Shown: positions 13,828 through 62,717, counted from the stretch's first letter. The stretch: 64,000 nt of DNA from Candidatus Anstonellaceae archaeon (GCA_038891055.1 JAWAEU010000001.1:1475-65474), one strand, 5' to 3'. Program-made: numbers and translations. Notes: a model not told the origin generated them from the sequence alone.

Positions 13828-16800
13828 TTATAAATCAATTAAACCTCTTTTCTTTTTAAGGCCAAACAAAAATACTGCTACCCCACCTCCAATAATAACT
13901 ACAACCAACAGAGCAAAAATCATCCACTCTAAATTCTCTGAAGTTTTTTGAGGAGATGATTGTACTTGCTGCTCTTGAATTGTCTGTCCATAACTTTGTT
14001 CAGCGGGGTAGGATGACTGAGACCTTGATGATTGCTGCCCTTGCTCTTTTTTACTTTCAGGTTGCTGAGGTGGTGTTGGTAAATTAGTAGGTAGCTGAAG
14101 CTGTTCTTTTGATTGCTGGGGTGGTGTTTCTAGAGGTGGTTGTGTTATTTCTTGGCTAAGAGTAGGAGTATTTGTTGATCTTTGAACTATTCCTCCTCCA
14201 GAATAAATTGATGAAGTTGAGGAAGAAGTGGAAGAAGAGCTAGAAGATTGAGATGAAGAAGGTGTATTATCATACAGCCCTAAAACTGAAAAACTATCAA
14301 TACTTACATTTATTGTCTTGGTGGTTGTGTTATAAGAAATAATTGGTACTGAGATACAATTTGAACCATCATCTTGGCATTTTTTAATTATTAGATTGCC
14401 TGCATCTAATAAATTTTCTATTTGCTGTTGCAAAGTTGAATTTAGAGCTGAATAATTAAACTGCACAGTAATATTTGGGCTAAATCTCAATCCAGCAGGA
14501 CCTAATAAAATAGTTAACTCAGAAAAGTTAGAAGCTCTTGAATTGTTAACTGCTAAATCTCCACTGGATAGAGATACATTATGAATGAAAATTAAACCTG
14601 GCGTGTAGTATGAAGAAAAGTTACTAATTGAAGTATTGTTTGCGATGTGGATAGATACAGATGCATTGTTTGATGGGTTATTATAGTGTAGGGCAAATGT
14701 CTGGTTGGTTCTATTCTCTTCATTTAATGACGAATAATTTCCAGCTCCTTCTAAAATAGTTATAGAGATATTTTGTTGTTGGCTAAATAGGTCAAACTCA
14801 TCACTAACCTTTACTTCGCAAGTTATATTATCTAAAGCAGAAAAGTTTTGGCTACTTAAAGTAGCATTGTTATAATCAGAATAAAGAGAGGAGATTAATT
14901 CTCCATTCTTATACCACTTATAGCTATAATTTTTAATAGTGTCATTATCTGGGTCAGATACTTCTATAATACAAGTTAAATTTGTAAAACTAAAAGCTTT
15001 TGGTGGCATTAGATTTAGTGAAGAAATATTTGGAGCAAAATTTGGTAGAGAGGCTGTAGTGGTAGAAGTATTAACAGAGGCCTCAAGATTATCCCTAAAA
15101 GTAACATTGATAGAAAAGTTTTGTGAATTATATATTGTTTCTGGGGGAATCCTACAGAGAAAACTGACATTAAATAAATTATTTGAAGTAGAATTAGAAA
15201 TCTGGGTACAAAATGCTATGGAAGGATCGGAAATTTCCATACTTACATCCACTATATCTATTGCTCCATCCTCATCACTTACCAAGGCATAAAAAATGGC
15301 TTTATGTCCTGGTTGATTTTGAACTAATGTTAGATCATTCACTAAAACAGGTGCACTGTTATTGATACCAAAAAGCACAGAGGTATTTACAAGATTGCCA
15401 CTCTGACCTCCAAAATCTTTAGCATATACCTCTAATTTGTATATACCTCTACCTAATGAAAGATCGGACAATATGCAATTAATTTCATCCCATCCTGGAG
15501 TGGAATTTGTACAATTGGCACTATTGGTAGAATTAAAAAGATAAACAAAAGTATTAAGTGTGGAGCCATTTAGAGCCTTTAGAATAATAGTAAGATTTGA
15601 AATAGCGCTGGAAGTGCCGTTTGCAGTTATATTAATTATAGGAGTAGAAGAATAATTGCTTTTGGATGGGGAGGAAATAGTTATAGAAGGTTCTACTAAG
15701 TCAGAAATATTATAACCTGAGAATTTATTTATATTAATAGTTAAATTTCCTGTGAAGAACCCATAGTCCTGATTAAATGTCCCCTGAGACCACTGGATAG
15801 TACCATCAAATTCTCCTTCATCATAAATAACATTAGGAGTAGAAGAAAAAGGTAAATCATACAAAACTACTCTTGCAGAAGTATTCAAATAAGATGCAGC
15901 TGTAGAATTCACAAATATCCTTGAGGGTTCAAATGAAAATGGCCTACCTATATTAACATGTATTAGATTTCCAATTGCATTAGCTACTGCAGCTGCTTTT
16001 TGAGGAGTGCTTATATCAACAGAACTAAAATTAAACATAGCTACTTTTTTGAAAGTATTGCCCCAAGGTAGAGATTGATTTAATGGACTACAAGAAGCAG
16101 AGCCATTTAATTCAATCACCTTTACTAAATTCACATTTTTAAAATCTAATACTTCTGACAAGTTTGTAGTTTCTTCACCTTCTCTAAAACATAAAGAAAA
16201 TTCTTCTGGTGGTCCTTGAATTGCACCTAAGTTATGTAAAATAAAAGGTATTGAAATGTTGCTCGAATGGCCTGCAGCATCAGTTGCATTTACTACTGCT
16301 AAAGCTACTGTTGGAATGGTAATATTATGAGATTGTATAAAGTCACCTACATTACAGCCATCCTCATTATACCAAAATTCCCCAGAAGCAGCTAAATCAA
16401 TAGGACCACAAATTTGAGTGCCATTTTCAAGCATAAAGATTACTGTGGCATTTGAAATATATGATACATTGTCATTAGCTCCAATTTTTATATGGACTAG
16501 ATTATTATTTTGTGCAGGAGAATAAAAAATATCTTGTTCTAATAGATTGGTAGAAGAATAATTAAAAAAATATGGTGGAGAATAATCTACAAAAAGGTCA
16601 GCTAAATATTCTTCATATGAGCCTCCACTATCAAAATAGGCTGTAATATAAAGGTTATATCTTCCCTCTTGTTGAGGTACAACCAAAGTACAGTTTGTGG
16701 ACCAATTAACTTCACCAACAACTAATTCAGATGTGTTGGTAAAGTTAGCGCCAACAGAGCAGTTTGGTAAACTTATATTATTTACTAGATAAGAAGAGTT

Positions 16801-16962
16801 AGTAGTGATATTTATAGACACTTGCAGTGAAGATTGTGAAGGGTTAGATGCAACCAAAGGAACCATACTAAAACTGCTACCATCTATAATGAAATATTCA
16901 TGTATCGAAAACAAAATATTTATAAAAAAAATAGATAGCAAAAAGAAAAAGTAATTTTTCAT
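13828..16962 (-). CDS. Large cell-surface glycoprotein with signal peptide, >50 N-x-S/T sequons, Ser-rich then Pro/Gln-rich stalk and C-terminal TM anchor
   Basis: Signal peptide MKNYFFFLLSIFFINILFS, poly-Ser (SSSQSSSSSSTSSSTSS), a PPQQ…PTPPQQP stalk and a terminal TM (IFALLVVVIIGGGVAVFLFGL) followed by KKKR. The track start at 17070 lies inside tRNA-Thr; the ATG at 16962 is used. Confidence 0.65.
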   Translation of the reverse strand: MKNYFFFLLSIFFINILFSIHEYFIIDGSSFSMVPLVASNPSQSSLQVSINITTNSSYLVNNISLPNCSVGANFTNTSELVVGEVNWSTNCTLVVPQQEGRYNLYITAYFDSGGSYEEYLADLFVDYSPPYFFNYSSTNLLEQDIFYSPAQNNNLVHIKIGANDNVSYISNATVIFMLENGTQICGPIDLAASGEFWYNEDGCNVGDFIQSHNITIPTVALAVVNATDAAGHSSNISIPFILHNLGAIQGPPEEFSLCFREGEETTNLSEVLDFKNVNLVKVIELNGSASCSPLNQSLPWGNTFKKVAMFNFSSVDISTPQKAAAVANAIGNLIHVNIGRPFSFEPSRIFVNSTAASYLNTSARVVLYDLPFSSTPNVIYDEGEFDGTIQWSQGTFNQDYGFFTGNLTININKFSGYNISDLVEPSITISSPSKSNYSSTPIINITANGTSSAISNLTIILKALNGSTLNTFVYLFNSTNSANCTNSTPGWDEINCILSDLSLGRGIYKLEVYAKDFGGQSGNLVNTSVLFGINNSAPVLVNDLTLVQNQPGHKAIFYALVSDEDGAIDIVDVSMEISDPSIAFCTQISNSTSNNLFNVSFLCRIPPETIYNSQNFSINVTFRDNLEASVNTSTTTASLPNFAPNISSLNLMPPKAFSFTNLTCIIEVSDPDNDTIKNYSYKWYKNGELISSLYSDYNNATLSSQNFSALDNITCEVKVSDEFDLFSQQQNISITILEGAGNYSSLNEENRTNQTFALHYNNPSNNASVSIHIANNTSISNFSSYYTPGLIFIHNVSLSSGDLAVNNSRASNFSELTILLGPAGLRFSPNITVQFNYSALNSTLQQQIENLLDAGNLIIKKCQDDGSNCISVPIISYNTTTKTINVSIDSFSVLGLYDNTPSSSQSSSSSSTSSSTSSIYSGGGIVQRSTNTPTLSQEITQPPLETPPQQSKEQLQLPTNLPTPPQQPESKKEQGQQSSRSQSSYPAEQSYGQTIQEQQVQSSPQKTSENLEWMIFALLVVVIIGGGVAVFLFGLKKKRGLIDL

Positions 16963-17028
16963 ATAAAACAACCCCTTGAGTGTAAAAATTAATAAATAAA
17001 GGCTTTTAAAACTTTCCAAAAGCAAAAA

Positions 17029-17100
17029 AGCCCCCGGCGAGGATTGAACTCGCGACCTCTTGCTTACCATGCAAGCGCTCTACCACTGAGCTACGAGGGC
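17029..17100 (-). tRNA. tRNA-Thr (anticodon GGT)
   Basis: Reverse strand GCCCTCGTAGCTCAGTGGTAGAGCGCTTGCATGGTAAGCAAGAGGTCGCGAGTTCAATCCTCGCCGGGGGCT folds as a cloverleaf with T-loop TTCAATC and anticodon loop AUGGUAA. GC-rich island in AT-rich DNA. Confidence 0.8.
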
Positions 17101-17138
17101 TCAAAACTAAAAAAATAATATGTAAACAAAATTATAAA

Positions 17139-18583: not shown

Positions 18584-18696
18584 AATATCATATTAATAGA
18601 AATCTTTAAAAATATTTATCTCCATGATAATTTTAAATATGAAAATTCTAAAAATTTAGAATATTTAAAATTTTTTGATTAATTAGGTGGAGCTAG

Positions 18697-19182
18697 ATGA
18701 GTCTAACAAGAATAGAGCAAGAAGTGCTAAATGCATTAAAAGAGATGAGCCATTGTATTTATTTTGATGAGCCTGCAGCTAAGATATTGACAATTATTTT
18801 TCTTTCATCCAAACCTGTTAGTATGAGCCACATAGTCAAAAAATCCTCTATAAGCAAGACAAATGTATTTTTAAAATTAAAAAAAATTGAAGAAGCTGCA
18901 ATTATTAAAAAAATGAAGCAGCCCGGTACAAAGGAATTTTTATATTATATAGATCGAGATTTAAACAACCTCATAATTGAGCATATGAAAAAAAAGTATG
19001 AAGAATTTATGCTTTCTAGTCAATTGAAAATCCAAGATATTTTACTCAAATACAAAAAAATAAAAGATCTAAGCAAAGAGGAAAAAAACCAAATAAAAAT
19101 CTTAGATAACTATTACAAAAAAAATGTAAAGCTTTTAAAAATTCTTAGAAAATTTTTTGCACAATTGAGTGATAGAATATGA
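18697..19182 (+). CDS. Putative winged-helix transcriptional regulator
   Basis: 161-aa ORF with an AGGTGG RBS-like element upstream. The N-terminal ~80 aa is wHTH-like. The stop overlaps the start of the ABC ATPase (ATATGA). Confidence 0.4.
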   Translation: MSLTRIEQEVLNALKEMSHCIYFDEPAAKILTIIFLSSKPVSMSHIVKKSSISKTNVFLKLKKIEEAAIIKKMKQPGTKEFLYYIDRDLNNLIIEHMKKKYEEFMLSSQLKIQDILLKYKKIKDLSKEEKNQIKILDNYYKKNVKLLKILRKFFAQLSDRI

Positions 19183-19871
19183 AGAAAGAAATACTTACAA
19201 TGGAAAATGTCACAAAGAAATACCAAATGGGACTTCAAGAAATTAGTGCAGTTGAGAATATAAATTTAAAAGTAACAGAAGGTGAGAGAATCTCCATAAT
19301 TGGACCATCAGGCTCTGGAAAAACCACTCTACTCAATTTATTAGGTTTGCTAGATAGACCCACTAGTGGAAAAATCTATATTGACCAAACAGATACTACT
19401 ACACTAGATGATGATGAACTTTCTTATTTTCGTGGAAAAAAAATAGGGTTTGTATTTCAAAACTTTAATTTGATCCCCTCTCTAACTGCCTTAGAGAATG
19501 CATTTTTACCTCTGATGTTTTATAACGTACCATATGAACAAAGGATAAAAAGAGCAACTGAATTATTAGAGAGACTTGGATTAGGAAATAGACTTGAGTA
19601 TTACCCTTCTCAACTTTCAGGAGGACAGAGACAGAGAGTTGCTATAGCAAGGGCATTAATAAATAATCCAACTATTTTATTAGCTGATGAACCTACTGGA
19701 AATTTGGACAGTAAATCTGGAGAAGAAGTTTTAGAGATATTTGATGAATTGCATAAAGAGGGAAGGACTATTATAGTAGTTACTCATGATATTAATGTGG
19801 CTAAAAAAAGTCCACGAATAATTAAAATAAAAGATGGAAAAATAGAAGCTGACCAAAAGGTGAGAAAATGA
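19179..19871 (+). CDS. ABC transporter ATP-binding protein (MacB/LolD-like)
   Basis: Walker A GPSGSGKTT, ABC signature LSGGQRQRVAIARAL and Walker B ILLADEPTGNLD. Confidence 0.9.
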   Translation: MKKEILTMENVTKKYQMGLQEISAVENINLKVTEGERISIIGPSGSGKTTLLNLLGLLDRPTSGKIYIDQTDTTTLDDDELSYFRGKKIGFVFQNFNLIPSLTALENAFLPLMFYNVPYEQRIKRATELLERLGLGNRLEYYPSQLSGGQRQRVAIARALINNPTILLADEPTGNLDSKSGEEVLEIFDELHKEGRTIIVVTHDINVAKKSPRIIKIKDGKIEADQKVRK

Positions 19872-21346
19872 AGAAATTTTTTGTAATATTAGCACTATTG
19901 ATTGGAATAGTAGTTGCAGACATCTCTGTTTCCAATATAGTTACTAACCCAACTACAATTAGGCCCGGGACTATAGGCCTAATAACAATGACAATTACAA
20001 ATACGGATAATTCTGGAATAAATTCTGTTACTGCAGAACCTTCTCCACAATTCCCTCTAAAGGCAGGGCAGAAGTACTACTTAGGAGATTTTAAACCATC
20101 CAGTACCTCTACTTTTTCTTTTCCATTCTCGGTGGAACAGAATACAGATGGTGGAGTATTTTATATAAGCGTTAGGTTTACATGGGTTAATGGCAGTGGA
20201 GCTTTTGTAAAAACAATTCAAATTCCAATAGTTGTTAAAAACGAACCAATATTTTTGGTTGAGTCGAGTATGGAAAAGATAACTACGGAAGGAGAGTTTA
20301 CATTTCCTATTAAAATAACAAACAAGGGAGGAAAGGCAAAAAATATAAGAGTAGAAGTAAGCAGCCCTGATGTTTATGAAATTGGAAAAAACAAAAATAT
20401 TATCGAAAAATTAGAAAAAGATGAGCAAAAGGAAATAAAATTTTTACTATCAATGCTGGAAGATAGGGGTTCTGGTACTTACAACATTCCAATTAAAATT
20501 ACATATATAGATAGTACTGAAAAAGAAAATGAAGTTTTAGAACAAATAAAATTAATTATAATAAAAAAATCTCCAGAATTAAAAATAGAACTTCAACCTG
20601 GTCAGGTTTTAGAACCTGGTTCCAAAAAACCTCTAAGATTTTTAGTAAAAAATACTGGTGAAAAAACAGCATACTTTGTAAGAATAGGAATAGAAAACCA
20701 AACAGTATTGACTGTTTTGGAAGGAAATTATTTGGAGATTGGAGATCTTGAACCGAATTCTCAAAAAGAAATAGTTTTTAATGTTGGAATAAAGGACGTA
20801 ACTCCAGGATACTACACACAGCCATTTTACATAAAAACAAAGGACGAGAAAGGAAATGAAAAAATTCCTCAAATATATAACCTTGGCTTAGACATTTATG
20901 CAAAACCAAAGTTAAATGTATTTGTTTCTGGAAAACCAAGCCCTATGGAAACCAATCAGGATCATGTCCTAACAGTAATAGTTTCAAATGTGGGAATAAC
21001 TCCAATAAAATCATTAGTAGTTCAACTTCAATCGGAGGATTTTATATTGCAAGAAATTCAAAACGAGCAATATATTGGTTCATTAGCCGAAGATGATTTT
21101 TCTTCTGTACAATTTAAAATAAAGGCACCTGCAGAAGAAGGCAAAAAAACCCTTAATGTAAAACTAAAATTCTTAGATAATTATAATAATGAGCAAGTAA
21201 TAGAAAAACAAATAAATATAATGGTATATAAAAAGAAAGAGAATGGATTTAATCCACTTATTGGCCTTGCAGTGTTTATTGTCGCAGTTGTTTTAATTTG
21301 GTATTTCAAGCTAAGAAAAAGGAAAGATAAACATGCTGCCAAATGA
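19868..21346 (+). CDS. Secreted, C-terminally TM-anchored multi-domain (CARDB/Ig-like) protein encoded inside the ABC operon
   Basis: Signal peptide MKKFFVILALLIGIVVA, beta-rich repeated domains (…ITMTITNTDNSG…, …RFLVKNTGEKTAYFVRIG…, …TVIVSNVGITPIKS…) and a C-terminal TM plus basic tail. Translationally coupled to both flanking genes. Confidence 0.55.
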   Translation: MKKFFVILALLIGIVVADISVSNIVTNPTTIRPGTIGLITMTITNTDNSGINSVTAEPSPQFPLKAGQKYYLGDFKPSSTSTFSFPFSVEQNTDGGVFYISVRFTWVNGSGAFVKTIQIPIVVKNEPIFLVESSMEKITTEGEFTFPIKITNKGGKAKNIRVEVSSPDVYEIGKNKNIIEKLEKDEQKEIKFLLSMLEDRGSGTYNIPIKITYIDSTEKENEVLEQIKLIIIKKSPELKIELQPGQVLEPGSKKPLRFLVKNTGEKTAYFVRIGIENQTVLTVLEGNYLEIGDLEPNSQKEIVFNVGIKDVTPGYYTQPFYIKTKDEKGNEKIPQIYNLGLDIYAKPKLNVFVSGKPSPMETNQDHVLTVIVSNVGITPIKSLVVQLQSEDFILQEIQNEQYIGSLAEDDFSSVQFKIKAPAEEGKKTLNVKLKFLDNYNNEQVIEKQINIMVYKKKENGFNPLIGLAVFIVAVVLIWYFKLRKRKDKHAAK

Positions 21347-22562
21347 TATAATTCAATACGTTATAAAGTCTTTTAAGTATAGAAAATTGAGATCTTATCT
21401 GACACTTCTAGCAATTTTAATTGGAGTAGTGGCAGTAGTAGTCATAATTTCCATAAGTGATGGACTTATTGCTCAAATAAACGATCAGCTTCAGGCATTT
21501 GGCCCTAAAAATGGAGTTTTAGTAGCTGGAGATATTAGCAGGGGACCTACAATTCAGTCACAAAATTTTAGAGCTCCTCTAGAAGGAAAGATAACCACTA
21601 AAGATTATGAGACCATAAAAACCCATCCTGCAATAAAATATATAACAAAAAGAATAAATCTAAACACACAATTAGAATATAAAAAAAGAAATTTAACTGC
21701 AAGTGTTTGGGGAATAGAACCAGAGCAATTTTTTACAATGATGAATCTCTCTGTCCAAAAAGGTAGGATTATCTTACCTGGAGAAAAAAGTGTTGCTGTT
21801 GTTGGAGAAGCATTTACAGATAATACTATTTTTAAGGATAATCCCATCGAGATAGGTTCATTTATTTATTTAGGAAAAAACAAAAAAAAATTTAAAGTAG
21901 TAGGAGTGTTAGATCCAACAAACGTAGTAGCAAGAAATGGAATTTTAATAGCATTCGAAGATGCTAGAGATTTGGGGTTAGAAGAAGAAAAAATAATGAA
22001 AGACGAATTAAGTGCGGTTGCCTTTCAGGTTGCAGATGGTTATGAATTAAATGAAGTAGTTAGAGAATTAGAAGAAAAACTAAAAAGTTCAAGAAAGCTT
22101 CCACTAAATAAAAAAGATTTTACTATAGTTACTGCCGAATTTATCCTAAACCAGGTAATAACAATAATTGGGGCAGTAACTTTATTTTTGAGTTTTGTAT
22201 CTGGTTTGGCATTTTTTATAGGTAGCATAGGAATAGCAAATACACTATATATGGGAGTAGTAGAAAAAACAAAAGATATTGGGATCATGAGAGCAATTGG
22301 CGCTAGTAAAAAAGATATTGCAAAATTAGTAATTGTAGAGGGAGCAACATTTGGACTGATTGGAGGAATTTTAGGACTATTGGTTGGCTTTACAATAGCT
22401 CAAATAATAAATCAGTTTGGATTTAAAACAACTCTTGGTTTGCATGTTGCCTTTGCTGCTATCGCAGTAAGCACCTTGGTTGGTATTATTGCAAGTTACT
22501 ATCCTGCTAAAATAGCTGCAGAATTAGATCCAATAAAAGCTATATCTACCAATGTAAGATAA
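21333..22562 (+). CDS. ABC transporter permease, FtsX/MacB family
   Basis: N-terminal TM, large extracytoplasmic domain and a C-terminal FtsX-type 3-TM bundle (…FLSFVSGLAFFIGSIGIANTLYM…). Confidence 0.8.
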   Translation: MLPNDIIQYVIKSFKYRKLRSYLTLLAILIGVVAVVVIISISDGLIAQINDQLQAFGPKNGVLVAGDISRGPTIQSQNFRAPLEGKITTKDYETIKTHPAIKYITKRINLNTQLEYKKRNLTASVWGIEPEQFFTMMNLSVQKGRIILPGEKSVAVVGEAFTDNTIFKDNPIEIGSFIYLGKNKKKFKVVGVLDPTNVVARNGILIAFEDARDLGLEEEKIMKDELSAVAFQVADGYELNEVVRELEEKLKSSRKLPLNKKDFTIVTAEFILNQVITIIGAVTLFLSFVSGLAFFIGSIGIANTLYMGVVEKTKDIGIMRAIGASKKDIAKLVIVEGATFGLIGGILGLLVGFTIAQIINQFGFKTTLGLHVAFAAIAVSTLVGIIASYYPAKIAAELDPIKAISTNVR

Positions 22563-22563
22563 G

Positions 22564-23796
22564 GTGAAAAAATTGAAAATTGAAGATTATTTTTATTACA
22601 ATATAAAGACACTAAAACATTCTAAGATTTTAACTATTTTAACAATTTTTGGAATAATGATAGGTGTTTGGGCAATAATTTCTTTAATAGGGATTAGTGA
22701 AGGTCTAAAAAAAACTGTTGATGAACTAATAGAAGTATTTGGGCCAAACAACATTATAATAACACCAGGAAATACTTTTAGCCAAATAAGCTTTGGACCT
22801 ACAGTTAGGGCGAGTAGAGGAAAATTATTTGAAAAAGATATTCAAGCTATTTCCTCCATTGTCGGAATAAAAAAAATAGTGCCATTCTTGATTTCCCCTC
22901 TAGAAGTAAAATACAAAGATAAAGAAGTTAAAATAACAATTATAGGTTCTTACCCAGAAGAGCTTGACGAGATATATAAAGATTATTATGAAATTGAGGA
23001 GGGAAGAAAACTAAAAAATAATGACAAAAAAGTTGCTGTATTGGGAAGTAATATTGCTAAAGAAGTTTTTGATAAAGAAATCCTAGTTGGTCAAAAGATA
23101 TATATAGGAAGTCAAAAAGAGGAATTTTTTGTTGTAGGTATTTTTAAGAAAAAAGGTGGGCTGGAAGGAGTAGATGTAGATAATTCTATTTTTATAACTT
23201 ACGATGATGCAAAAAAACTTTTTAAATCAATAAAATTACAAAATGAGGTTGACAGTATTTTAGTAAATGTAGAAGAAGGGTTCGATGTAGAGAGCATCGC
23301 ACAGTTAATAGAATACAAATTAGCCTCATTACACAAAGTTAGTTTAGATGAAAAAGACTTTCTGGTCTCTACATCTAAAAATATAAAGGAAAGAATAGAT
23401 ACTATTAGTAATTTGCTATCAACTTTTTTAATAGGAATTGCTTCTATTTCTATTCTAGTTGGTGGAATTGGAATTACAAATACGATGTATTCTTCTATTT
23501 TGCAAAGAACATATGAGATAGGAGTATTGAGAGCTACAGGTGCTACAAAAAGAGACATATTGATTATTTTTCTACTAAATAGTGCAATCATAGGCCTGGC
23601 TGGAGGATTAGCTGCTTTGATAGGTTCTTGGATCTTATTTTTTATACTTGGATTTTTTGGTATTAAAGCGATTCTTTCCCTTCCATTAGCTCTTTTTTCC
23701 ATTCTATTTGGATTTATAATTGGTTTGGTCGCTGGTTATCCCCCAGCAAGGAAGGCGGCTGAAGTAGATCCTATCGAAAGTCTAAGATATGAATAA
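22564..23796 (+). CDS. ABC transporter permease, FtsX/MacB family (second copy)
   Basis: Same architecture as the upstream permease (…ILVGGIGITNTMYSSILQRTYEIGVLRATGATKRDI…). Confidence 0.8.
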   Translation: MKKLKIEDYFYYNIKTLKHSKILTILTIFGIMIGVWAIISLIGISEGLKKTVDELIEVFGPNNIIITPGNTFSQISFGPTVRASRGKLFEKDIQAISSIVGIKKIVPFLISPLEVKYKDKEVKITIIGSYPEELDEIYKDYYEIEEGRKLKNNDKKVAVLGSNIAKEVFDKEILVGQKIYIGSQKEEFFVVGIFKKKGGLEGVDVDNSIFITYDDAKKLFKSIKLQNEVDSILVNVEEGFDVESIAQLIEYKLASLHKVSLDEKDFLVSTSKNIKERIDTISNLLSTFLIGIASISILVGGIGITNTMYSSILQRTYEIGVLRATGATKRDILIIFLLNSAIIGLAGGLAALIGSWILFFILGFFGIKAILSLPLALFSILFGFIIGLVAGYPPARKAAEVDPIESLRYE

Positions 23797-24309
23797 TTAT
23801 TTTTTTAAAAGCTTTTTTAATATTTTTTTAGCAAATTCTTTATTTTTTTTGTTAATATCTAAAAATACTATTCCTCTATTTGGCTGTCCATAAAAAACAA
23901 AATCTTTTTTAGAACAAAAAATTAAAACCACCAAAGTCGCTAAATCCTCTTCTCCATCTACTTCTATAAAAATCTTTTTCTTTTTTTTCAAAGAGTCTTT
24001 TATTGCTCTAAATAGTTCTGGAGAAATAGAACCGGCAACGTTCCTAACTTTGATTAAATTTGTTGAATTAGAATAGATTAGCTCTAAATATTTTTTTGGG
24101 GTTGGTTTTCTTTTTATTTTTCTATCAAATATTGCCAAAGAAGGCACATGGCCCAAAGAGATAATGGAATAAGTAGATTCATCCCCAATAGTTATCAATT
24201 TTTTGTGTGGTTTTGATAAAAGCTTAAGCAACAAAGATTTGCTTTTATAAACTTTCCCATAGGGTTTAGATAATTTTTTTCTCAAAACTCTATCCATAAA
24301 AACCATCAT
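23797..24309 (-). CDS. GTP-dependent dephospho-CoA kinase (archaeal DUF359 family)
   Basis: ITIGDEST…AIFDRKIKRK…VDGEEDLATLVVL…YGQPNRGIV matches the DUF359 conserved blocks. 170 aa. Confidence 0.6.
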   Translation of the reverse strand: MMVFMDRVLRKKLSKPYGKVYKSKSLLLKLLSKPHKKLITIGDESTYSIISLGHVPSLAIFDRKIKRKPTPKKYLELIYSNSTNLIKVRNVAGSISPELFRAIKDSLKKKKKIFIEVDGEEDLATLVVLIFCSKKDFVFYGQPNRGIVFLDINKKNKEFAKKILKKLLKK

Positions 24310-25667
24310 TGGGGTTCTTTTTTCTTTGGAATTGATTTAAATATATCTGATGGCTTTATGTCCTTACCTTTTTTTAGCTCAGAAGAAACATCAGAAGCTG
24401 AAGGTTGAGGGGTTGAAGAAAACTTGTTTTTATAGAGGTAAAAAGCTACAACCATCACTATTAGAACAACAATAAACGACAGTAAAGAAGAAAAATCAAA
24501 TTTTGAAAAATCAAATAGACCTCTAATTGGCCCCTCCTCCTCTTTTGCTATTCCCTCATTTTTAGATGAACCTTCTAAAACAAAAACATCGGAGCTAATC
24601 AAAGTATTTCCTGCTGAATCAGTTGCCTCGATACTATACTTTATATTTTTAGTGGTAGAGTCAAGTTTTAAGATAGCTTCGTAGGTATTATAGCCCACAG
24701 AATACATTGGTAAAACCCTCTCTACATCTGGTGCAGGGTAGTACCTTACGTTTATTTTTGCTTTTGAGCCTTTAAATGATGAGGGATATTTGCCTGGATC
24801 TACAATTACTGCCCTTAATTGAATTAAATTTCCTTCGAGTTTTGTAGAGATATCCTCAATTTTTGGAGGGTGAGTATCCAAAACATAATTTATTGAATTT
24901 GTTTTAGAAAGATCAAATGTTTCAGAAAAAAGATACTTTTGATATGAAATCTCTGCCACTATTTTTGATTTTGTTAAGTTTTCAAATCGCACCAATCCTT
25001 CTTTATCTGTTCTATAAGAAAAAGGACCTACTGAGACTTTTACATTAGGAATTGGTACTCCATTATCATCAATTACTCTAAAATTGCAAGAATAAAGCTC
25101 AACATCTAAGTCCAATACCATATCTTTATTAACTGAAAATTTTTTTTCTTGATCTAAATCAAAAAATATTGGTCTTACAACATGGTCACCTGATGTTAGT
25201 ATAAATTCAGCAACCCCAGAATTATCAGTATAAAGCTCATAGGTAGAATCTATTAAAAGTTTTATTGAGAGAGGATTACGATCTTTAGTTTTTGTAATGA
25301 ACTTTACTAAATATGCGTCAATCATTACAGTTCTAGGCATAGAGCCAACATTTGCTCTAAATTTCTCCGAATAATTTTTTCCTTGATAGGAAACAAATAC
25401 AACATAATCATAATTAGTTAAATTTTGATTGAATTCAGTATTATATAACTTAAAATAAGCTCTTCCCCTTTCATTTGTAAATTGAATAGTAGTTGTGCCA
25501 TTCCCTTTTGCTCTTGAAATTTCCCAAACTATATAAACTACTGCATTTGGCACTGGTCTGCCCATTTTATCCAATACTCTAACCTCAACCTCTTCGTACC
25601 ATTCTGCGAAAATAGGAAAAATAAAAATATTAAAAAGGATTATTAAAAATAAAATTTTACAATTCAT
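24306..25667 (-). CDS. Cell-surface protein with carboxypeptidase-regulatory-like beta-sandwich repeats and C-terminal TM anchor
   Basis: Signal peptide MNCKILFLIILFNIFIFPIFA, repeats of the form V.V.D..G.PVPNA.V…T…G.A.F, and C-terminal TM SFIVVLIVMVVAFYLY. Confidence 0.5.
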   Translation of the reverse strand: MNCKILFLIILFNIFIFPIFAEWYEEVEVRVLDKMGRPVPNAVVYIVWEISRAKGNGTTTIQFTNERGRAYFKLYNTEFNQNLTNYDYVVFVSYQGKNYSEKFRANVGSMPRTVMIDAYLVKFITKTKDRNPLSIKLLIDSTYELYTDNSGVAEFILTSGDHVVRPIFFDLDQEKKFSVNKDMVLDLDVELYSCNFRVIDDNGVPIPNVKVSVGPFSYRTDKEGLVRFENLTKSKIVAEISYQKYLFSETFDLSKTNSINYVLDTHPPKIEDISTKLEGNLIQLRAVIVDPGKYPSSFKGSKAKINVRYYPAPDVERVLPMYSVGYNTYEAILKLDSTTKNIKYSIEATDSAGNTLISSDVFVLEGSSKNEGIAKEEEGPIRGLFDFSKFDFSSLLSFIVVLIVMVVAFYLYKNKFSSTPQPSASDVSSELKKGKDIKPSDIFKSIPKKKEPQ

Positions 25668-25838
25668 AAAATTTTAAAGAAGAAAAATTTTAAAAATAGA
25701 TAATGCTGCTAAATTATCCTGTTAATTTTCTTCTAATAATTTTTAGCATTTTTTGAACTTATTGAATATTGACTAATTTGCTAAAAAAAATATTAAATTA
25801 GAATCATAAAATTAGTGTAGAATAAAAAAATTTAATAT

Positions 25839-25950
25839 GTCAGCAACAACTGGCTTTCCCGCCAGATGGCAGTAACGGCCAGTCACAAGCAGGCTTAACT
25901 TCCGAGTTCGAAATGGGATCGGGTGTTACCCTGCTCTTATGGTCGCTGAC
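25839..25950 (-). rRNA. 5S ribosomal RNA
   Basis: Reverse strand GTCAGCGACCATAAGAGCAGGGTAACACCCGATCCCATTTCGAACTCGGAAGTTAAGCCTGCTTGTGACTGG…GTTGCTGAC contains the conserved CCGAUCCCAUUUCGAACUCGGAAGUUAAGC block, with terminal helix GUCAGC/GCUGAC. GC-rich island. A TATA-like element (TTTATATAA) lies ~25 nt upstream. Confidence 0.8.
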
Positions 25951-28091: not shown

Positions 28092-28224
28092 TGCCAAGGG
28101 GGGGATTTGAACCCCCGACTTCCAGATTTCTCAACGTGCCAAAAATATATCATTGCAAAAGCTCAACACTCATAAATAAAAATTTATGAGTCTGGCACTC
28201 TAAACCAGGCTGAGTTACCTTGGC
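28092..28224 (-). tRNA. tRNA-Met or tRNA-Ile2 (anticodon CAT), elongator type, with a ~57-nt intron at the canonical 37/38 position
   Basis: Reverse strand reads GCCAAGG-TA-ACTC…GAGT-G-CCAGA-CTCATA[A-intron…GAGAAA]TCTGG-AAGTC-GGGGGTTCAAATCCCCC-CCTTGGC-A. The intron segment TTTATGAGT can pair with the anticodon loop ACTCATAAA, as expected for a BHB splice structure. 133 nt total. Confidence 0.75.
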
Positions 28225-49752: not shown

Positions 49753-49849
49753 ATTTAAAAAAGTACCAAAAAATCGACAAAATCTATTTGAAAAGATAGA
49801 ATTTGGGTGAAGATATTCCGACAAACTAGATTTTAGCTAGGTGTGGTAT

Positions 49850-52740
49850 TTTGGTTTAGTAGCAGCAGGCTACACCGCTCGCTTTTGGCTTGCGGCTTAC
49901 ACCTCTGCCCTATCAAACGGATCTGCTATCCGCCCATTAGCCTGACTCGTTTTGAGAGCTGCTTCGACCTTAGATGCTTTCAGGTCTTATCAGCTAGCGC
50001 GTAGCTGCCCGGCGATGCTATTACACAACCGGTACACCAGAGGCGCCGTACCCGTGTTCCTCTCGTACTCATGGGTACTTACTCTCAGTCAGGCAGCACT
50101 TCCAGGAGATACTACCGTACTGTCTCGCGACGTACTGAACCCAGCTCATGTAGGACTTTAATGGATGAACAACCCAACCCTTGGTGGCTCCTACACCACC
50201 AGGATGTCCTAAGCCGACAGCGATGTACCAAACCGCGGGGTCGATGTGTACTCTCGCCCGCGACGAGCCTGTTACCCCCGGGGTAGCTTGTCTGACAGCT
50301 TGGAGCCCCATCAAAAGGCTACCAAGGTTCGTTAAGCCCGGCTTTCGCCTCTGCTCTCCACGCTGTTAGGAGAACAGTCAGCCCAGCATATGTCTTTAAC
50401 CCTTAACAGTGCATTTCTGACGCACCTAAGCTGAGCATTGGGCACCCTTGTTTATTTATCGAGGGTGTACCGCCCCAGCCAAACTATCCACCTGATGCTG
50501 TCTACCCTCTAGGAGTATAAGCAGTACAAGGCAACTAAAATGGTGTTACATCGTCGCCTATCTAATGCCCGAAAGCATTAGCTTAGCGGCTCCCATTTAC
50601 TCTATGTTAGCCACCCTATACCACAACATCAGGCTATAGTAAAGCTCCACGGGGTCTTCGTTTCCCCCTGGAAGTCCACTGCATACTCACAGTGTAGTAG
50701 GTTCACCAGGTCCTGGCATGGGACAGTGGGAGAGTCGTTACGCCCTTCATGCAAGCCACCAATTAAGCGGCGAGGTATTACGCTACCTCAAGAGGGTCAG
50801 AGTTACCCCCGCTCTTTGCCGGCGCTTAGGCCCGTTGTAACAGGCTTTCACGTACCGGTAGTGAGCAGGCGTCACCCGCAATACTAACCGTTTCCGGTTT
50901 GCTGCGAGTTGTGTTTTTGATAAACAGTCGCTCTCCCCTTGTCACTGCGACCTGCTGATGCTTAAAACAACAGCAGGCACCGCTTCTCCCTAAGTTACGC
51001 GGCGAATTTGCCGAGTTCCCTATGCCAAGTTATCCTGCCACGCCTTGGCTTGTTCAGCCAGCAGCACCTGTATTAGTTCTAGGTACGGTTAGCCAAGATC
51101 GCTTTTTACTCTCTTTTCATGGGACCCAGGAATTGGGCAACTTGCGCATTCCTAAGGTTATACCATTTCTCCTGACAATCAGACTCCATGGTATTGCCTT
51201 AGTTAGACAGCCGAAGCTGCTTGCCCTATCCCAAGCCGTCGAGAGTAAAACTTGCGTTACCGCATCTACTTGGCTAGGACCGGAATATTAACCGGTTTCC
51301 CTTTCGCATAGTGGGAATTACCCCTATGCTTAGGACCGCCTAACTCTAGGCTGACGAACATCTCCTAGAAAACCGTGTGCTATGCGGCGTCCAGGATTTT
51401 CACCTGGATATGCTGTTACTAATACCAGGATATTCATAACTGGTCGGTCCATAGGAGCTTACGCCCCTACTTCTATCCAACCAGCTCGCCCCCCTACCAG
51501 CCTTGCACCCATAGAGGTGCAAGCTCTAGGGTATCGGTACTGGGCTTAGTCCCGAGCCTCTTTGAAGATTATACTCTAGACTGGTCCGCTATTACGCGTT
51601 GTTTAAAGGATGGCTGCTTCTAAGCCTACCTTCCAGCTGTTTTTGAGTATAACCTTCTTTGCGATTGACACTTAGCCCAGATTTAGGGACCTTAACCCTA
51701 GGTACGGTCGTTCCCGTAACGGCCTGCTAGCTTACCCAGCAGAACCCGACTCCCTGCTTCTTCGGCGAGTATAGATTCGAGGTTTGACGATCAGGTGAGG
51801 CCTTTCGACCCCGTTCCTGATAATCAGTGCCCTACCCTACACTCTACCTCCGCAGAGGCTATACTGAGATATACTTCGAGGGGAACCCGCTATTGCCGAG
51901 TTCGATTGGACTATCACCCCTACCCGTGGGTCACCCAAGCAGAATATACTAGCACTGGTTGCGGTCCTCCATCCACCTTCAGGTGGACTTCGACCTGCCC
52001 ACGCGTAGATCACATCGGCTTCGGGTCTGAAGGGAGTGACTGCTCGCCATTTCTGACGAGGGGGTAAACCCAACTTGCTTTCGCTTCGGCTCTCGCCTTG
52101 CCACGCCCTTCAACTCCCTGGCCCTTGCTTCGAGAAGGACGATATGACAGTGGGACTGTTCTATCGCGCTTAGCTTCACAGCTAAGCACTTTTAGAACAG
52201 TTATCCTTTCCTGCCATATCAAACTGTAGCCACTTAGTTTCAAGTTCTTTTCACCCCCCGTTTTGGGGAACTTTTCAGCTTTCCCTCGCGGTACTAGTGC
52301 GCTATCGGTCTTGGGTTATATTTAGCATTGGAAGTTGATACTCCCAAATTCACGCCACATACTCAAGTGACGCTACTCTTAAATGGCCTCTTGCCATATT
52401 CTGTCCGCACACGGGGCTATCACCCTCTATGGCTCAGCTTTCCAGCTGATTGTGCTCCAGAACATGGCTAAGTAGCCCCCTACATCTCCAGTCAGTTACC
52501 TGACTTGGATTTAGGGACGTGCTCTTTGGCTTTCACTCACCGTTACTCACCAAATCCCATTTTGGTTTCTCTTCCTGCCGGTACTAAAATGTTTTAATTC
52601 CCGGCGTGAGTTGCCCATCACAGGGACAAGGCCAGACCCCAGGATCGCAGGATTCATGCTCCTCCCCTGGGCTTATCCCAGCTTGACAGGTGGCCATTTC
52701 TACCCAAGCCAAGCTATCCACTAAGTGGCATAACAGCATA
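49850..52740 (-). rRNA. 23S ribosomal RNA (about 2.87 kb; ends approximate)
   Basis: Sharp GC-rich island. The reverse strand contains the sarcin-ricin loop AGUACGAGAGGAAC, domain V GGGGAUAACAGGCU and the 5' domain …CACUUAGUGGAUAGCUUGGCUUGG…GAUAAGCCCAGGGGAGG. It is flanked by a long inverted repeat (49805-49829 vs 52758-52798) typical of archaeal pre-rRNA processing stems. The track ORFs inside it are artefacts. Confidence 0.85.
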
Positions 52741-53030
52741 CCACACCTATTTGCTCTCTAGTTTGTCACTGCAAATGCAATTGGAACTATCTTCACCCAA
52801 TGCCATTGCCAAAAATTGGCAATGGTGAGGCAAAGCCTCTTGCTCTTGGCAGCTGCCAAGATGCAAAAAATACACTAATCTATATGTAAGATAAAATGCA
52901 TCGCAACCAACTTTTTAACAAGCATAGTTGGTGCTGATGTCAGCCTAAAATGGCTGAATTTTAAGTAGAAATAAATATATACCAACAAATATATAAATCT
53001 TTTGGTTGAAAATCTAAACTAATCTATAAA

Positions 53031-61001: not shown

Positions 61002-62528
<1,527 letters not shown>

Positions 62529-62717
62529 AAGCTTTGGAGATGTTTGTGCAAGGCCTTTTTCTGTCCTTGGAATAAATCCAAAGAGTGCTCTGCTTTATCT
62601 ATTTTTGATAAAAAGTCGCGCATCTCCCCTGAACCATGCCAAAAAATCGATGAGTTGCAATTTTTTAAGATAACTTTAAATACTTTTCCGTCGTAAATAA
62701 TATGTAAAAAATTCACG

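Follow-up and report, generated by a model that had tools for sequence, protein, structure and literature searches.

A MacB-type ABC transporter locus of an Anstonellaceae archaeon with a candidate beta-sandwich accessory subunit

What is the gene for a surface protein doing in the middle of a transporter operon? The question is raised by a five-gene locus at positions 18697–23796 of a 64,000-nucleotide stretch of DNA from a Candidatus Anstonellaceae archaeon (GCA_038891055.1 JAWAEU010000001.1:1475-65474; referred to below as the window), in which the gene for a 492-amino-acid (aa) beta-sandwich protein stands between those for the ATPase and the two permeases of an ATP-binding cassette (ABC) system. 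The answer that we favour, with moderate confidence, is that the locus encodes a locally regulated type VII (MacB/LolCDE-like) ABC exporter, and that the 492-aa protein, here called the accessory protein, is its dedicated, adaptor-like subunit with a fold other than that of the membrane fusion proteins (MFPs). The observations behind it are the gene content and coupling of the locus, the identities of the encoded domains, the co-conservation of the genes, the pattern of constraint within the accessory protein, and the presence of its homologues beside exporters of other classes. The window carries unlinked archaeal large subunit (LSU), small subunit (SSU) and 5S rRNA genes and an archaeal RNase P RNA gene at about 30% GC, and a protein with 99% identity to the accessory protein is from a metagenome-assembled genome of Candidatus Anstonellaceae (Micrarchaeota, DPANN); both agree with the DPANN archaeal source proposed in the original prediction, which a model had made from the sequence by itself.

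Components of the locus

The five genes, taken from a listing of open reading frames (ORFs), are as follows:

18697–19182, + strand: winged-helix regulator, 161 aa
19179–19871, + strand: ABC ATPase of the LolD/MacB subfamily, a separate nucleotide-binding domain (NBD) gene, 230 aa
19868–21346, + strand: bitopic accessory (beta-sandwich) protein, 492 aa
21333–22562, + strand: MacB-type permease 1, 409 aa
22564–23796, + strand: MacB-type permease 2, 410 aa (407 aa if the TTG at 22573 is the start)

Successive junctions measure −4, −4, −14 and +1 nucleotides (nt): the first two overlaps are ATGA (19179 and 19868), the third spans 14 nt (21333), and the last junction reads TAA-G-GTG (22560–22566). 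The ORFs and junction strings reported in the original prediction match these in both coordinates and sequence, and its description of a tightly coupled unit is consistent with the overlaps and with a scan of T runs, which found none of at least 7 on the sense strand within 18697–23796; the five genes leave no space for intergenic promoters. The GTG start of permease 2 sits within AAGGTGA, a Shine-Dalgarno sequence that matches the 3′ end of the genome's 16S rRNA (GATCACCTCCA) perfectly, and AGGTG(A) also stands before genes 1 and 3. Because the GTG falls inside this Shine-Dalgarno sequence, the TTG at 22573, which is in frame with permease 2 and at a typical spacing after it, is as plausible a start and may be the true one; the gap to permease 1 would then be 10 nt, and tight coupling would be kept.

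Neither the ATPase nor the permeases are out of the ordinary for their well-known superfamily. The ATPase matches ABC_tran (1.3e-37), with the MacB NBD and LolD as its best NCBIfam models, and among solved structures MJ0796 is nearest to it (E = 4.3e-78), ahead of Spr0694, MacB and LolD. Its motifs are all intact (Walker A at residue 42, the Q-loop at 92, LSGGQ at 146, Walker B and the catalytic Glu at 166–171, and the H-loop at 201), and it is thus a catalytically equipped cognate NBD of the LolD/MacB/FtsE subfamily, as expected of a type VII ABC system. Both permeases score well above the PF12704 cut-off of 27 bits for MacB_PCD, permease 1 with 2.9e-23 (83.7 bits) over residues 22–248 and permease 2 with 6.2e-31 (108.7 bits) over residues 24–250, and both match FtsX further on (2.1e-19 over 288–398, and 4.1e-16 over 292–400, respectively). 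Each has a first transmembrane (TM) helix, an extracytoplasmic MacB_PCD of about 230 aa, and an FtsX-type bundle of TM2–4, and the hydrophobic segments of permease 1 (18–51 and a C-terminal cluster) fit one N-terminal and three C-terminal helices; this four-TM layout with a MacB-type periplasmic core domain (Porter plus Sabre) is again that of type VII systems. The best solved match of permease 2 is E. coli MacB (5nik, E = 3.7e-37, residues 16–408), followed by Spr0695 (5xu1). The permeases are 31% identical to each other, in line with the original description of two paralogous FtsX-type permeases, and in a neighbour-joining tree the permeases of position 1 and those of position 2 group, for most lineages, in two clades that run in parallel. 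They therefore appear to be an old pair, and probably form an obligate, LolC/LolE-like heterodimer that arose from an old duplication.

The accessory protein has the following architecture:

Residues 1–18: signal peptide
Residues 19–126 (D1), 127–235 (D2), 236–346 (D3) and 347–456 (D4): four CARDB-like beta-sandwich domains
Residues about 463–485: TM helix, followed by a basic cytoplasmic tail
Residues 401–416 (21068–21115, + strand): D4 signature hairpin QYIGSLAEDDFSSVQF, from the alignment

It matches Pfam CARDB with 32.9 bits (cut-off 22.7), and an AlphaFold2 model with a mean pLDDT of 86 has four beta-sandwich domains and a C-terminal TM helix; the earlier description of a secreted beta-sandwich protein with its own C-terminal membrane anchor is borne out by both. 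A signal peptide, tandem CARDB-like domains and a C-terminal TM anchor are together the make-up of COG1361/CARDB surface proteins. A sequence search of the PDB with the accessory protein gave nothing significant, and its model matches beta-sandwich folds only. No MFP-like fold was found in it and there is no MFP gene in the operon, so the statement that a MacA-type adaptor is absent also stands. Nor was a hydrolase, coiled-coil, ligand-sensor or other enzymatic module detected in the protein, and no PGF-CTERM, lipobox or other processing signal was evident when its sequence was read.

Conservation of the core and relatives beside other pumps

The arrangement was followed in 49 species-level loci (one genome per species, nearly all Micrarchaeota), with their ORFs classified against the window proteins; 44 of these have enough upstream sequence and 43 are informative downstream. 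The ATPase gene lies upstream of the accessory gene at all 44, and on the downstream side there are two permease genes at 40 of the 43, one at two, and none at one. Median junction distances are 0–4 nt, as measured from longest-ORF starts, which bias them towards overlap. Such a recurrence of one gene order, in 40 of the 43 informative loci, is far more than chance would give, and the cassette is very widespread in Micrarchaeota. Accessory homologues at 37%, 29% and 24% identity are also encoded with an ABC ATPase gene on one side and two MacB_PCD/FtsX genes on the other, with unrelated flanking genes in two of these three distant loci; other DPANN lineages have a shorter class, of three domains, in the same gene order; and still weaker relatives are located in MacB/FtsX clusters. 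The original prediction had allowed that the surface-protein gene might be an unrelated one, inserted between transporter components and not co-conserved in relatives; its insertion point is instead kept, both in the 40 loci and in distant lineages. Distance-matrix correlations range from 0.74 to 0.87, values that are confounded by the species tree.

The expectation of a five-gene arrangement across DPANN holds for the ATPase/accessory/permease/permease core and fails for the regulator, which is swapped or absent in most relatives. A regulator of the window type is upstream of the cassette at 5 of the 49 loci, a PadR-like gene takes its position at 18, AbrB/MazE-like genes do so at two annotated three-domain loci (L062 and L066), and nothing recognisable is found there in other loci. 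The conserved unit is thus one of four genes, with interchangeable local regulators.

Two departures from the usual layout are of note. At L039, L047, L051 and L058 a gap of 280–450 nt replaces the overlap that is usual between the accessory gene and the first permease gene; three of these cassettes (L039, L051 and L058) are second copies in their genomes, and their permeases group in a clade of their own. In a distant relative, L064 (3450–7625), the ATPase gene is followed by ORFs of 130 aa and 160 aa, a gene for a 313-aa CARDB protein, an ORF of 152 aa and a single MacB-type permease gene, and the accessory protein may there be split into several small proteins.

Within the accessory protein, D4 is the domain under strongest constraint, with a mean pairwise identity among the 49 sequences of 0.47, compared to 0.32–0.33 for D1–D3. 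Because the D4 motif had been used to fish for loci, the D4 identity was recomputed without residues 405–418, and at 0.43 it is still the highest of any domain. The distal domains vary in number between three and four and are the least conserved; the basic cytoplasmic tail and TM anchor are kept throughout. The hairpin columns Q401, I403, G404, L406, D409, D410, F411, S412, S413, V414 and Q415 are invariant or near-invariant in the 49 sequences, giving the consensus QYIGSLxxDDFSSVQF, and the three-domain class, which was retrieved independently, carries FIGTLEADDFDSFK at the hairpin. From the order of strands in the model, the DDF turn, the N374/G376 turn and the D437/N440 loop would all lie at the membrane-distal end of D4. 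A homologue search with the D4 domain alone recovered four fragments only.

The wider family is large. An exhaustive profile search with the accessory protein yielded 9,050 cluster representatives at E ≤ 1e-3; at the stricter limits of 1e-10 and 1e-30 there are 4,346 and 677. Members are named ‘COG1361 S-layer family protein’ by NCBI; the equation of COG1361 with S-layers is a database label, repeated without evidence in the papers that we found. On haloarchaeal plasmids five family genes are located directly upstream of RND or MMPL transporter genes, with a TetR/AcrR gene divergent upstream of both Haloarcula marismortui pairs, a helix-turn-helix gene upstream of the Haloplanus pair, and no adjoining regulator gene at the other two loci. 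A Methanoperedens homologue overlaps the end of an MMPL half-transporter gene pair and has a divergent TrmB regulator gene. These RND/MMPL-linked proteins have the same topology as the window protein (signal peptide, beta-sandwiches, C-terminal TM helix and basic tail), and hhalign relates them to the window family with a probability of about 98% over 280–318 columns (97.8% for one named member). The DDF motif is confined to the MacB-linked classes and is absent from the RND/MMPL-linked homologues. We also note that on a Halorientalis marina plasmid (L069, 2266–6044) a 655-aa family relative, which shares this topology, follows genes for an ABC ATPase and a 261-aa ABC permease that by its size looks ABC-2-like, which hints at a third exporter class with a COG1361-type partner.

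A proposed exporter with an adaptor-like subunit, and its alternatives

In the mechanism that we propose, two copies of the ATPase would energise a heterodimer of the two four-TM permeases, each with a Porter/Sabre domain of MacB type (about 230 aa) that would project from the outer face of the membrane. The accessory protein would be a fourth subunit, held beside the pump by its C-terminal TM helix, with D4 and its DDF hairpin touching the permease ectodomains and the three variable distal domains forming a stalk that, going by the usual size of such domains, would extend perhaps 12–16 nm into the region beneath the S-layer or pass through it. As ATP is bound and hydrolysed, the permease ectodomains would shift by mechanotransmission and so expel an amphiphilic substrate from the outer leaflet or cell surface, with the accessory protein guiding or scaffolding the expulsion, as a functional counterpart of MacA-like adaptors with an unrelated fold. 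A regulator of MarR type presumably keeps the operon repressed in the absence of its ligand, which would be the substrate or a stress signal. In this scheme the contact between accessory protein and permeases, its stoichiometry, what the stalk does, which substrate is moved and how the operon is regulated are what we infer from the observations above. We prefer an exporter with an accessory subunit because the permeases have MacB-type ectodomains, no effector module is present, the homologues are paired with RND/MMPL transporters, and the local regulators belong to efflux- or stress-type families; MarR-like, PadR-like, AbrB-like, TetR/AcrR and TrmB proteins often control efflux and stress-response genes.

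Several points weigh against this preference. First, the accessory protein has no channel- or groove-forming feature, being built of generic beta-sandwiches only. Secondly, the collection of loci through the D4 motif inflates the conservation of D4, albeit that D4 ranks first with the motif left out. Thirdly, there are exceptions to the pairing: L014 (5125–7506) has ATPase and accessory genes without permeases and with long unrelated ORFs downstream, two loci have a single permease gene, and the distant homologue P0013 has no pump adjoining. Fourthly, in three genomes with two paralogous cassettes each, the permeases fall into two types, a division that the ATPase and accessory proteins do not follow cleanly. 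Lastly, the assignment of the five genes to a single transcript draws on sequence features only.

The alternative with most in its favour, which we nonetheless regard as unlikely, is that advanced in the original prediction, namely a mechanotransducing surface module rather than an exporter: the ABC complex would work as in FtsEX, and the accessory protein would be an extracellular effector or sensor, for example in adhesion or S-layer remodelling. In its favour, members of the MacB/FtsX (type VII) superfamily work by mechanotransmission (PMC8277102). The partner is also strictly co-conserved, a classical adaptor role is not obviously required where no outer membrane has to be bridged, and CARDB-type domains are often tied to adhesion in DPANN surface proteins (PMC5498576). 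Mechanotransmission is, however, expected of MacB-type pumps in general, and the contrast with an exporter is not favoured. The permeases have a full MacB_PCD and match MacB best, whereas FtsX models give them 30–35 bits against cut-offs of 225–255, and the FtsE model gives the ATPase 212.6 bits against 264.85. The accessory protein, with its four beta-sandwiches, contains none of the hydrolase, coiled-coil or sensor modules that were sought; its distal domains, where an effector would be expected to reside, are the least conserved and number three or four; and its homologues pair with RND/MMPL transporters, not with signalling ATPases.

A rather improbable second alternative casts the accessory protein as cargo, a TM-anchored protein extracted from the membrane in Lol-like fashion and delivered to the surface layer. 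A separate ATPase with two paralogous permeases is a LolCDE-like architecture, the S-layer label of the family would suit such a cargo, and recognition by an extractor would fall in the membrane-proximal domain, where conservation is highest. The permeases, though, reach only 74.8 and 62.3 bits with the LolC/E model TIGR02212 (cut-off 362.45), and the ATPase 243.1 bits with the LolD model TIGR02211 (cut-off 307.75). A strict pairing of one gene with one pump, RND/MMPL pumps included, is unusual for cargo; the protein shows no PGF-CTERM, lipobox or processing signal on reading and keeps its tail and TM anchor throughout; and a structural S-layer protein would presumably be needed in much larger amounts than a coupled pump subunit.

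We give little credence to a third possibility, in which the module serves a traffic of lipids, or of molecules like them, between the DPANN cell and its host and the stalk is a bridge or carrier. Pumps of the MacB/Lol and MMPL/HAE types do take lipidic substrates from the outer leaflet (HAE-2/HAE-3, PMC8277102), the Micrarchaeota in which the cassette is widespread are a host-dependent group (PMC5498576), and the cassette is flanked by PfkB and DUF359 housekeeping genes both in the window and in a nearer relative (L001). The sequences indicate no lipid-binding groove, however, the family is also present in free-living haloarchaea and Methanoperedens, and regulators of an inducible type suggest stress or detoxification more than constitutive supply. 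Finally, we find it scarcely credible, and in effect refuted by the pattern of conservation, that the surface-protein gene is functionally unrelated and merely located between transporter genes. DPANN genomes do abound in CARDB-like surface proteins (PMC5498576), and two further beta-sandwich or large surface-protein genes are close by in the window, but in 40 of 43 loci, and in distant lineages with other flanks, the gene stands at the same point among the transporter genes, and homologues pair with RND/MMPL pumps.

Comparison with known systems places the exporter that we favour among the MacB-type pumps, and sets it apart from all of those characterised by its accessory protein, whose family accompanies another pump class as well. 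MacAB-TolC (PDB 5nik, 5lil) shares with the locus an FtsX-type permease with TM1, Porter-Sabre and three further helices, an ATPase of the MacB/LolD subfamily, and an extracytoplasmic accessory protein encoded in the operon; its NBD is fused to the permease, which forms a homodimer, whereas the locus has a separate ATPase gene and two permease paralogues, and in place of the MFP adaptor and outer-membrane channel it has a C-terminally anchored protein of four beta-sandwiches. LolCDE is alike in having one LolD-like ATPase gene and two paralogous MacB-type permeases that form a heterodimer, but the locus has no LolA-like carrier, its partner is a membrane-anchored beta-sandwich protein, and its scores are under the Lol equivalog cut-offs. 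Spr0693-0694-0695 of S. pneumoniae (5xu1) and YknXYZ of B. subtilis are found, like the locus, in single-membrane cells with separate ATPase and permease genes and an anchored accessory protein in the operon, and Spr0694 and Spr0695 are among its closest solved relatives; their accessory proteins are of the HlyD-type MFP class with an N-terminal anchor, and their permeases are homodimeric, and the locus differs in both respects. FtsEX with EnvC, PcsB, CwlO or RipC belongs to the same superfamily and passes ATP-driven motion to an extracellular partner, but the extracellular domain of FtsX is smaller and of another kind, and FtsX acts with coiled-coil regulators or hydrolases, modules that the locus partner lacks. 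The COG1361 and RND/MMPL pairs of haloarchaea and Methanoperedens have a homologous accessory protein of the same topology, an adjoining or overlapping exporter gene and often a local regulator, but with a proton-driven RND/MMPL pump and a last domain without the DDF signature. The closest solved homologues of the ATPase and regulator, MJ0796 and MJ223 of M. jannaschii, are isolated structural-genomics targets.

Literature searches found no description of a pairing between a MacB-type pump and a beta-sandwich protein; hits on Clostridium beijerinckii and Thermococcus barophilus had no bearing on it. To our knowledge, the passage of pump substrates across the sub-S-layer space in archaea, with their single membrane and S-layer of protein, is essentially unstudied, and we know of no adaptors for archaeal efflux pumps. 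One family of beta-sandwich anchor proteins is here widely paired with MacB-type ABC transporters in DPANN and with RND/MMPL transporters in haloarchaea and methane-oxidising archaea. If the window protein is a true pump subunit, it would represent a new class of accessory protein, give a function to the large family labelled as S-layer proteins, and offer a possible physiological context for MJ0796 as a close homologue of the ATPase. We suggest, tentatively, that COG1361-type bitopic proteins could be a non-homologous archaeal counterpart of periplasmic adaptors, docking with exporters of at least two unrelated classes, MacB-type ABC and RND/MMPL, and linking them to or through the S-layer, with docking specificity provided by class-specific membrane-proximal domains such as that with the DDF hairpin.

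Regulator, putative transcript boundaries and neighbouring genes

The 161-aa regulator by itself gives weak matches below the Pfam cut-off (0.03 for MarR and 2.4e-4 for Lrs14), but a profile built from it and five relatives matches PDB 1ku9 (MJ223) over its full length (E = 4.8e-12, positions 5–156), in agreement with a winged helix-turn-helix core and flanking dimerisation helices. The profile also matches Lrs14-like and MarR structures, and the relatives match MarR/MarR_2/HTH_24. With the profile, a solid prediction is that the protein is an MJ223-like winged-helix regulator of the MarR superfamily with a C-terminal helical extension.

The following elements flank the genes:

18584–18696, + strand: candidate promoter/operator region (sequence and inverted repeats; low confidence)
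About 18606–18612, + strand: TATA-like box TTTAAAA (sequence)
18635–18672, + strand: imperfect palindrome AAATATGAAAATTCTAAA / TTTAGAATATTTAAAATT, core ATTCTAAA-AA-TTTAGAAT (inverted-repeat search)
18684–18691, + strand: Shine-Dalgarno AGGTGGAG (sequence)
23800–23850, + strand: putative archaeal intrinsic terminator, an oligo-T cluster of T7, T6, T7 and T8 (T-run scan)

The TTTAAAA box, the TTTAGAAT motifs and TTAGGTG are common to the window and a relative at 74% identity (L010), the one close relative that retains the upstream region. The conserved upstream motif TTTAGAATATTTAAAAT is not enriched within the window. Because the comparison is between two AT-rich sequences and the motif lacks enrichment, the palindrome at 18635–18672 is a weak lead as a candidate operator. 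Oligo-T tracts terminate transcription in archaea. The cluster to the right of the operon starts 4 nt past the last stop codon, has its four runs within 55 nt, and overlaps the 3′ end of the convergent DUF359 gene (23797–24309). The layout is consistent with a single transcript closed by an archaeal oligo-T terminator, and promoters may also lie inside the coding sequence. A scan for sigma-70 promoters and hairpin terminators returned sites no more frequently than in shuffled sequence; such a bacterial-type scan is not applicable to archaea.

Beyond the operon there are two further surface-protein genes. An ORF at 13828–17101 (− strand), listed at 1080 aa, begins within the tRNA-Thr(GGT) gene at 17028–17101, and its real start is probably a downstream Met (MKNYFFF...) at about 16965; the resulting product of about 1045 aa has no Pfam match, many N-X-S/T sequons, a Ser/Gln-rich stalk and a C-terminal TM helix, and is a large orphan surface protein. 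The gene at 24306–25667 (− strand) overlaps the DUF359 gene by 4 nt and encodes a protein of 453 aa in which CarboxypepD_reg/MG4/Big_1-like beta-sandwich domains stand between a signal peptide and a C-terminal TM helix, a second anchored beta-sandwich protein beside the operon and convergent to it. An Rfam tRNA match spanning 133 nt at 28092–28224 (− strand), not called by ARAGORN, is probably an intron-containing archaeal tRNA gene. The 5S (25838–25950), LSU (49837–52745) and SSU (61002–62529) rRNA genes are unlinked and on different strands, and explain the GC peaks in the composition profile of the window.

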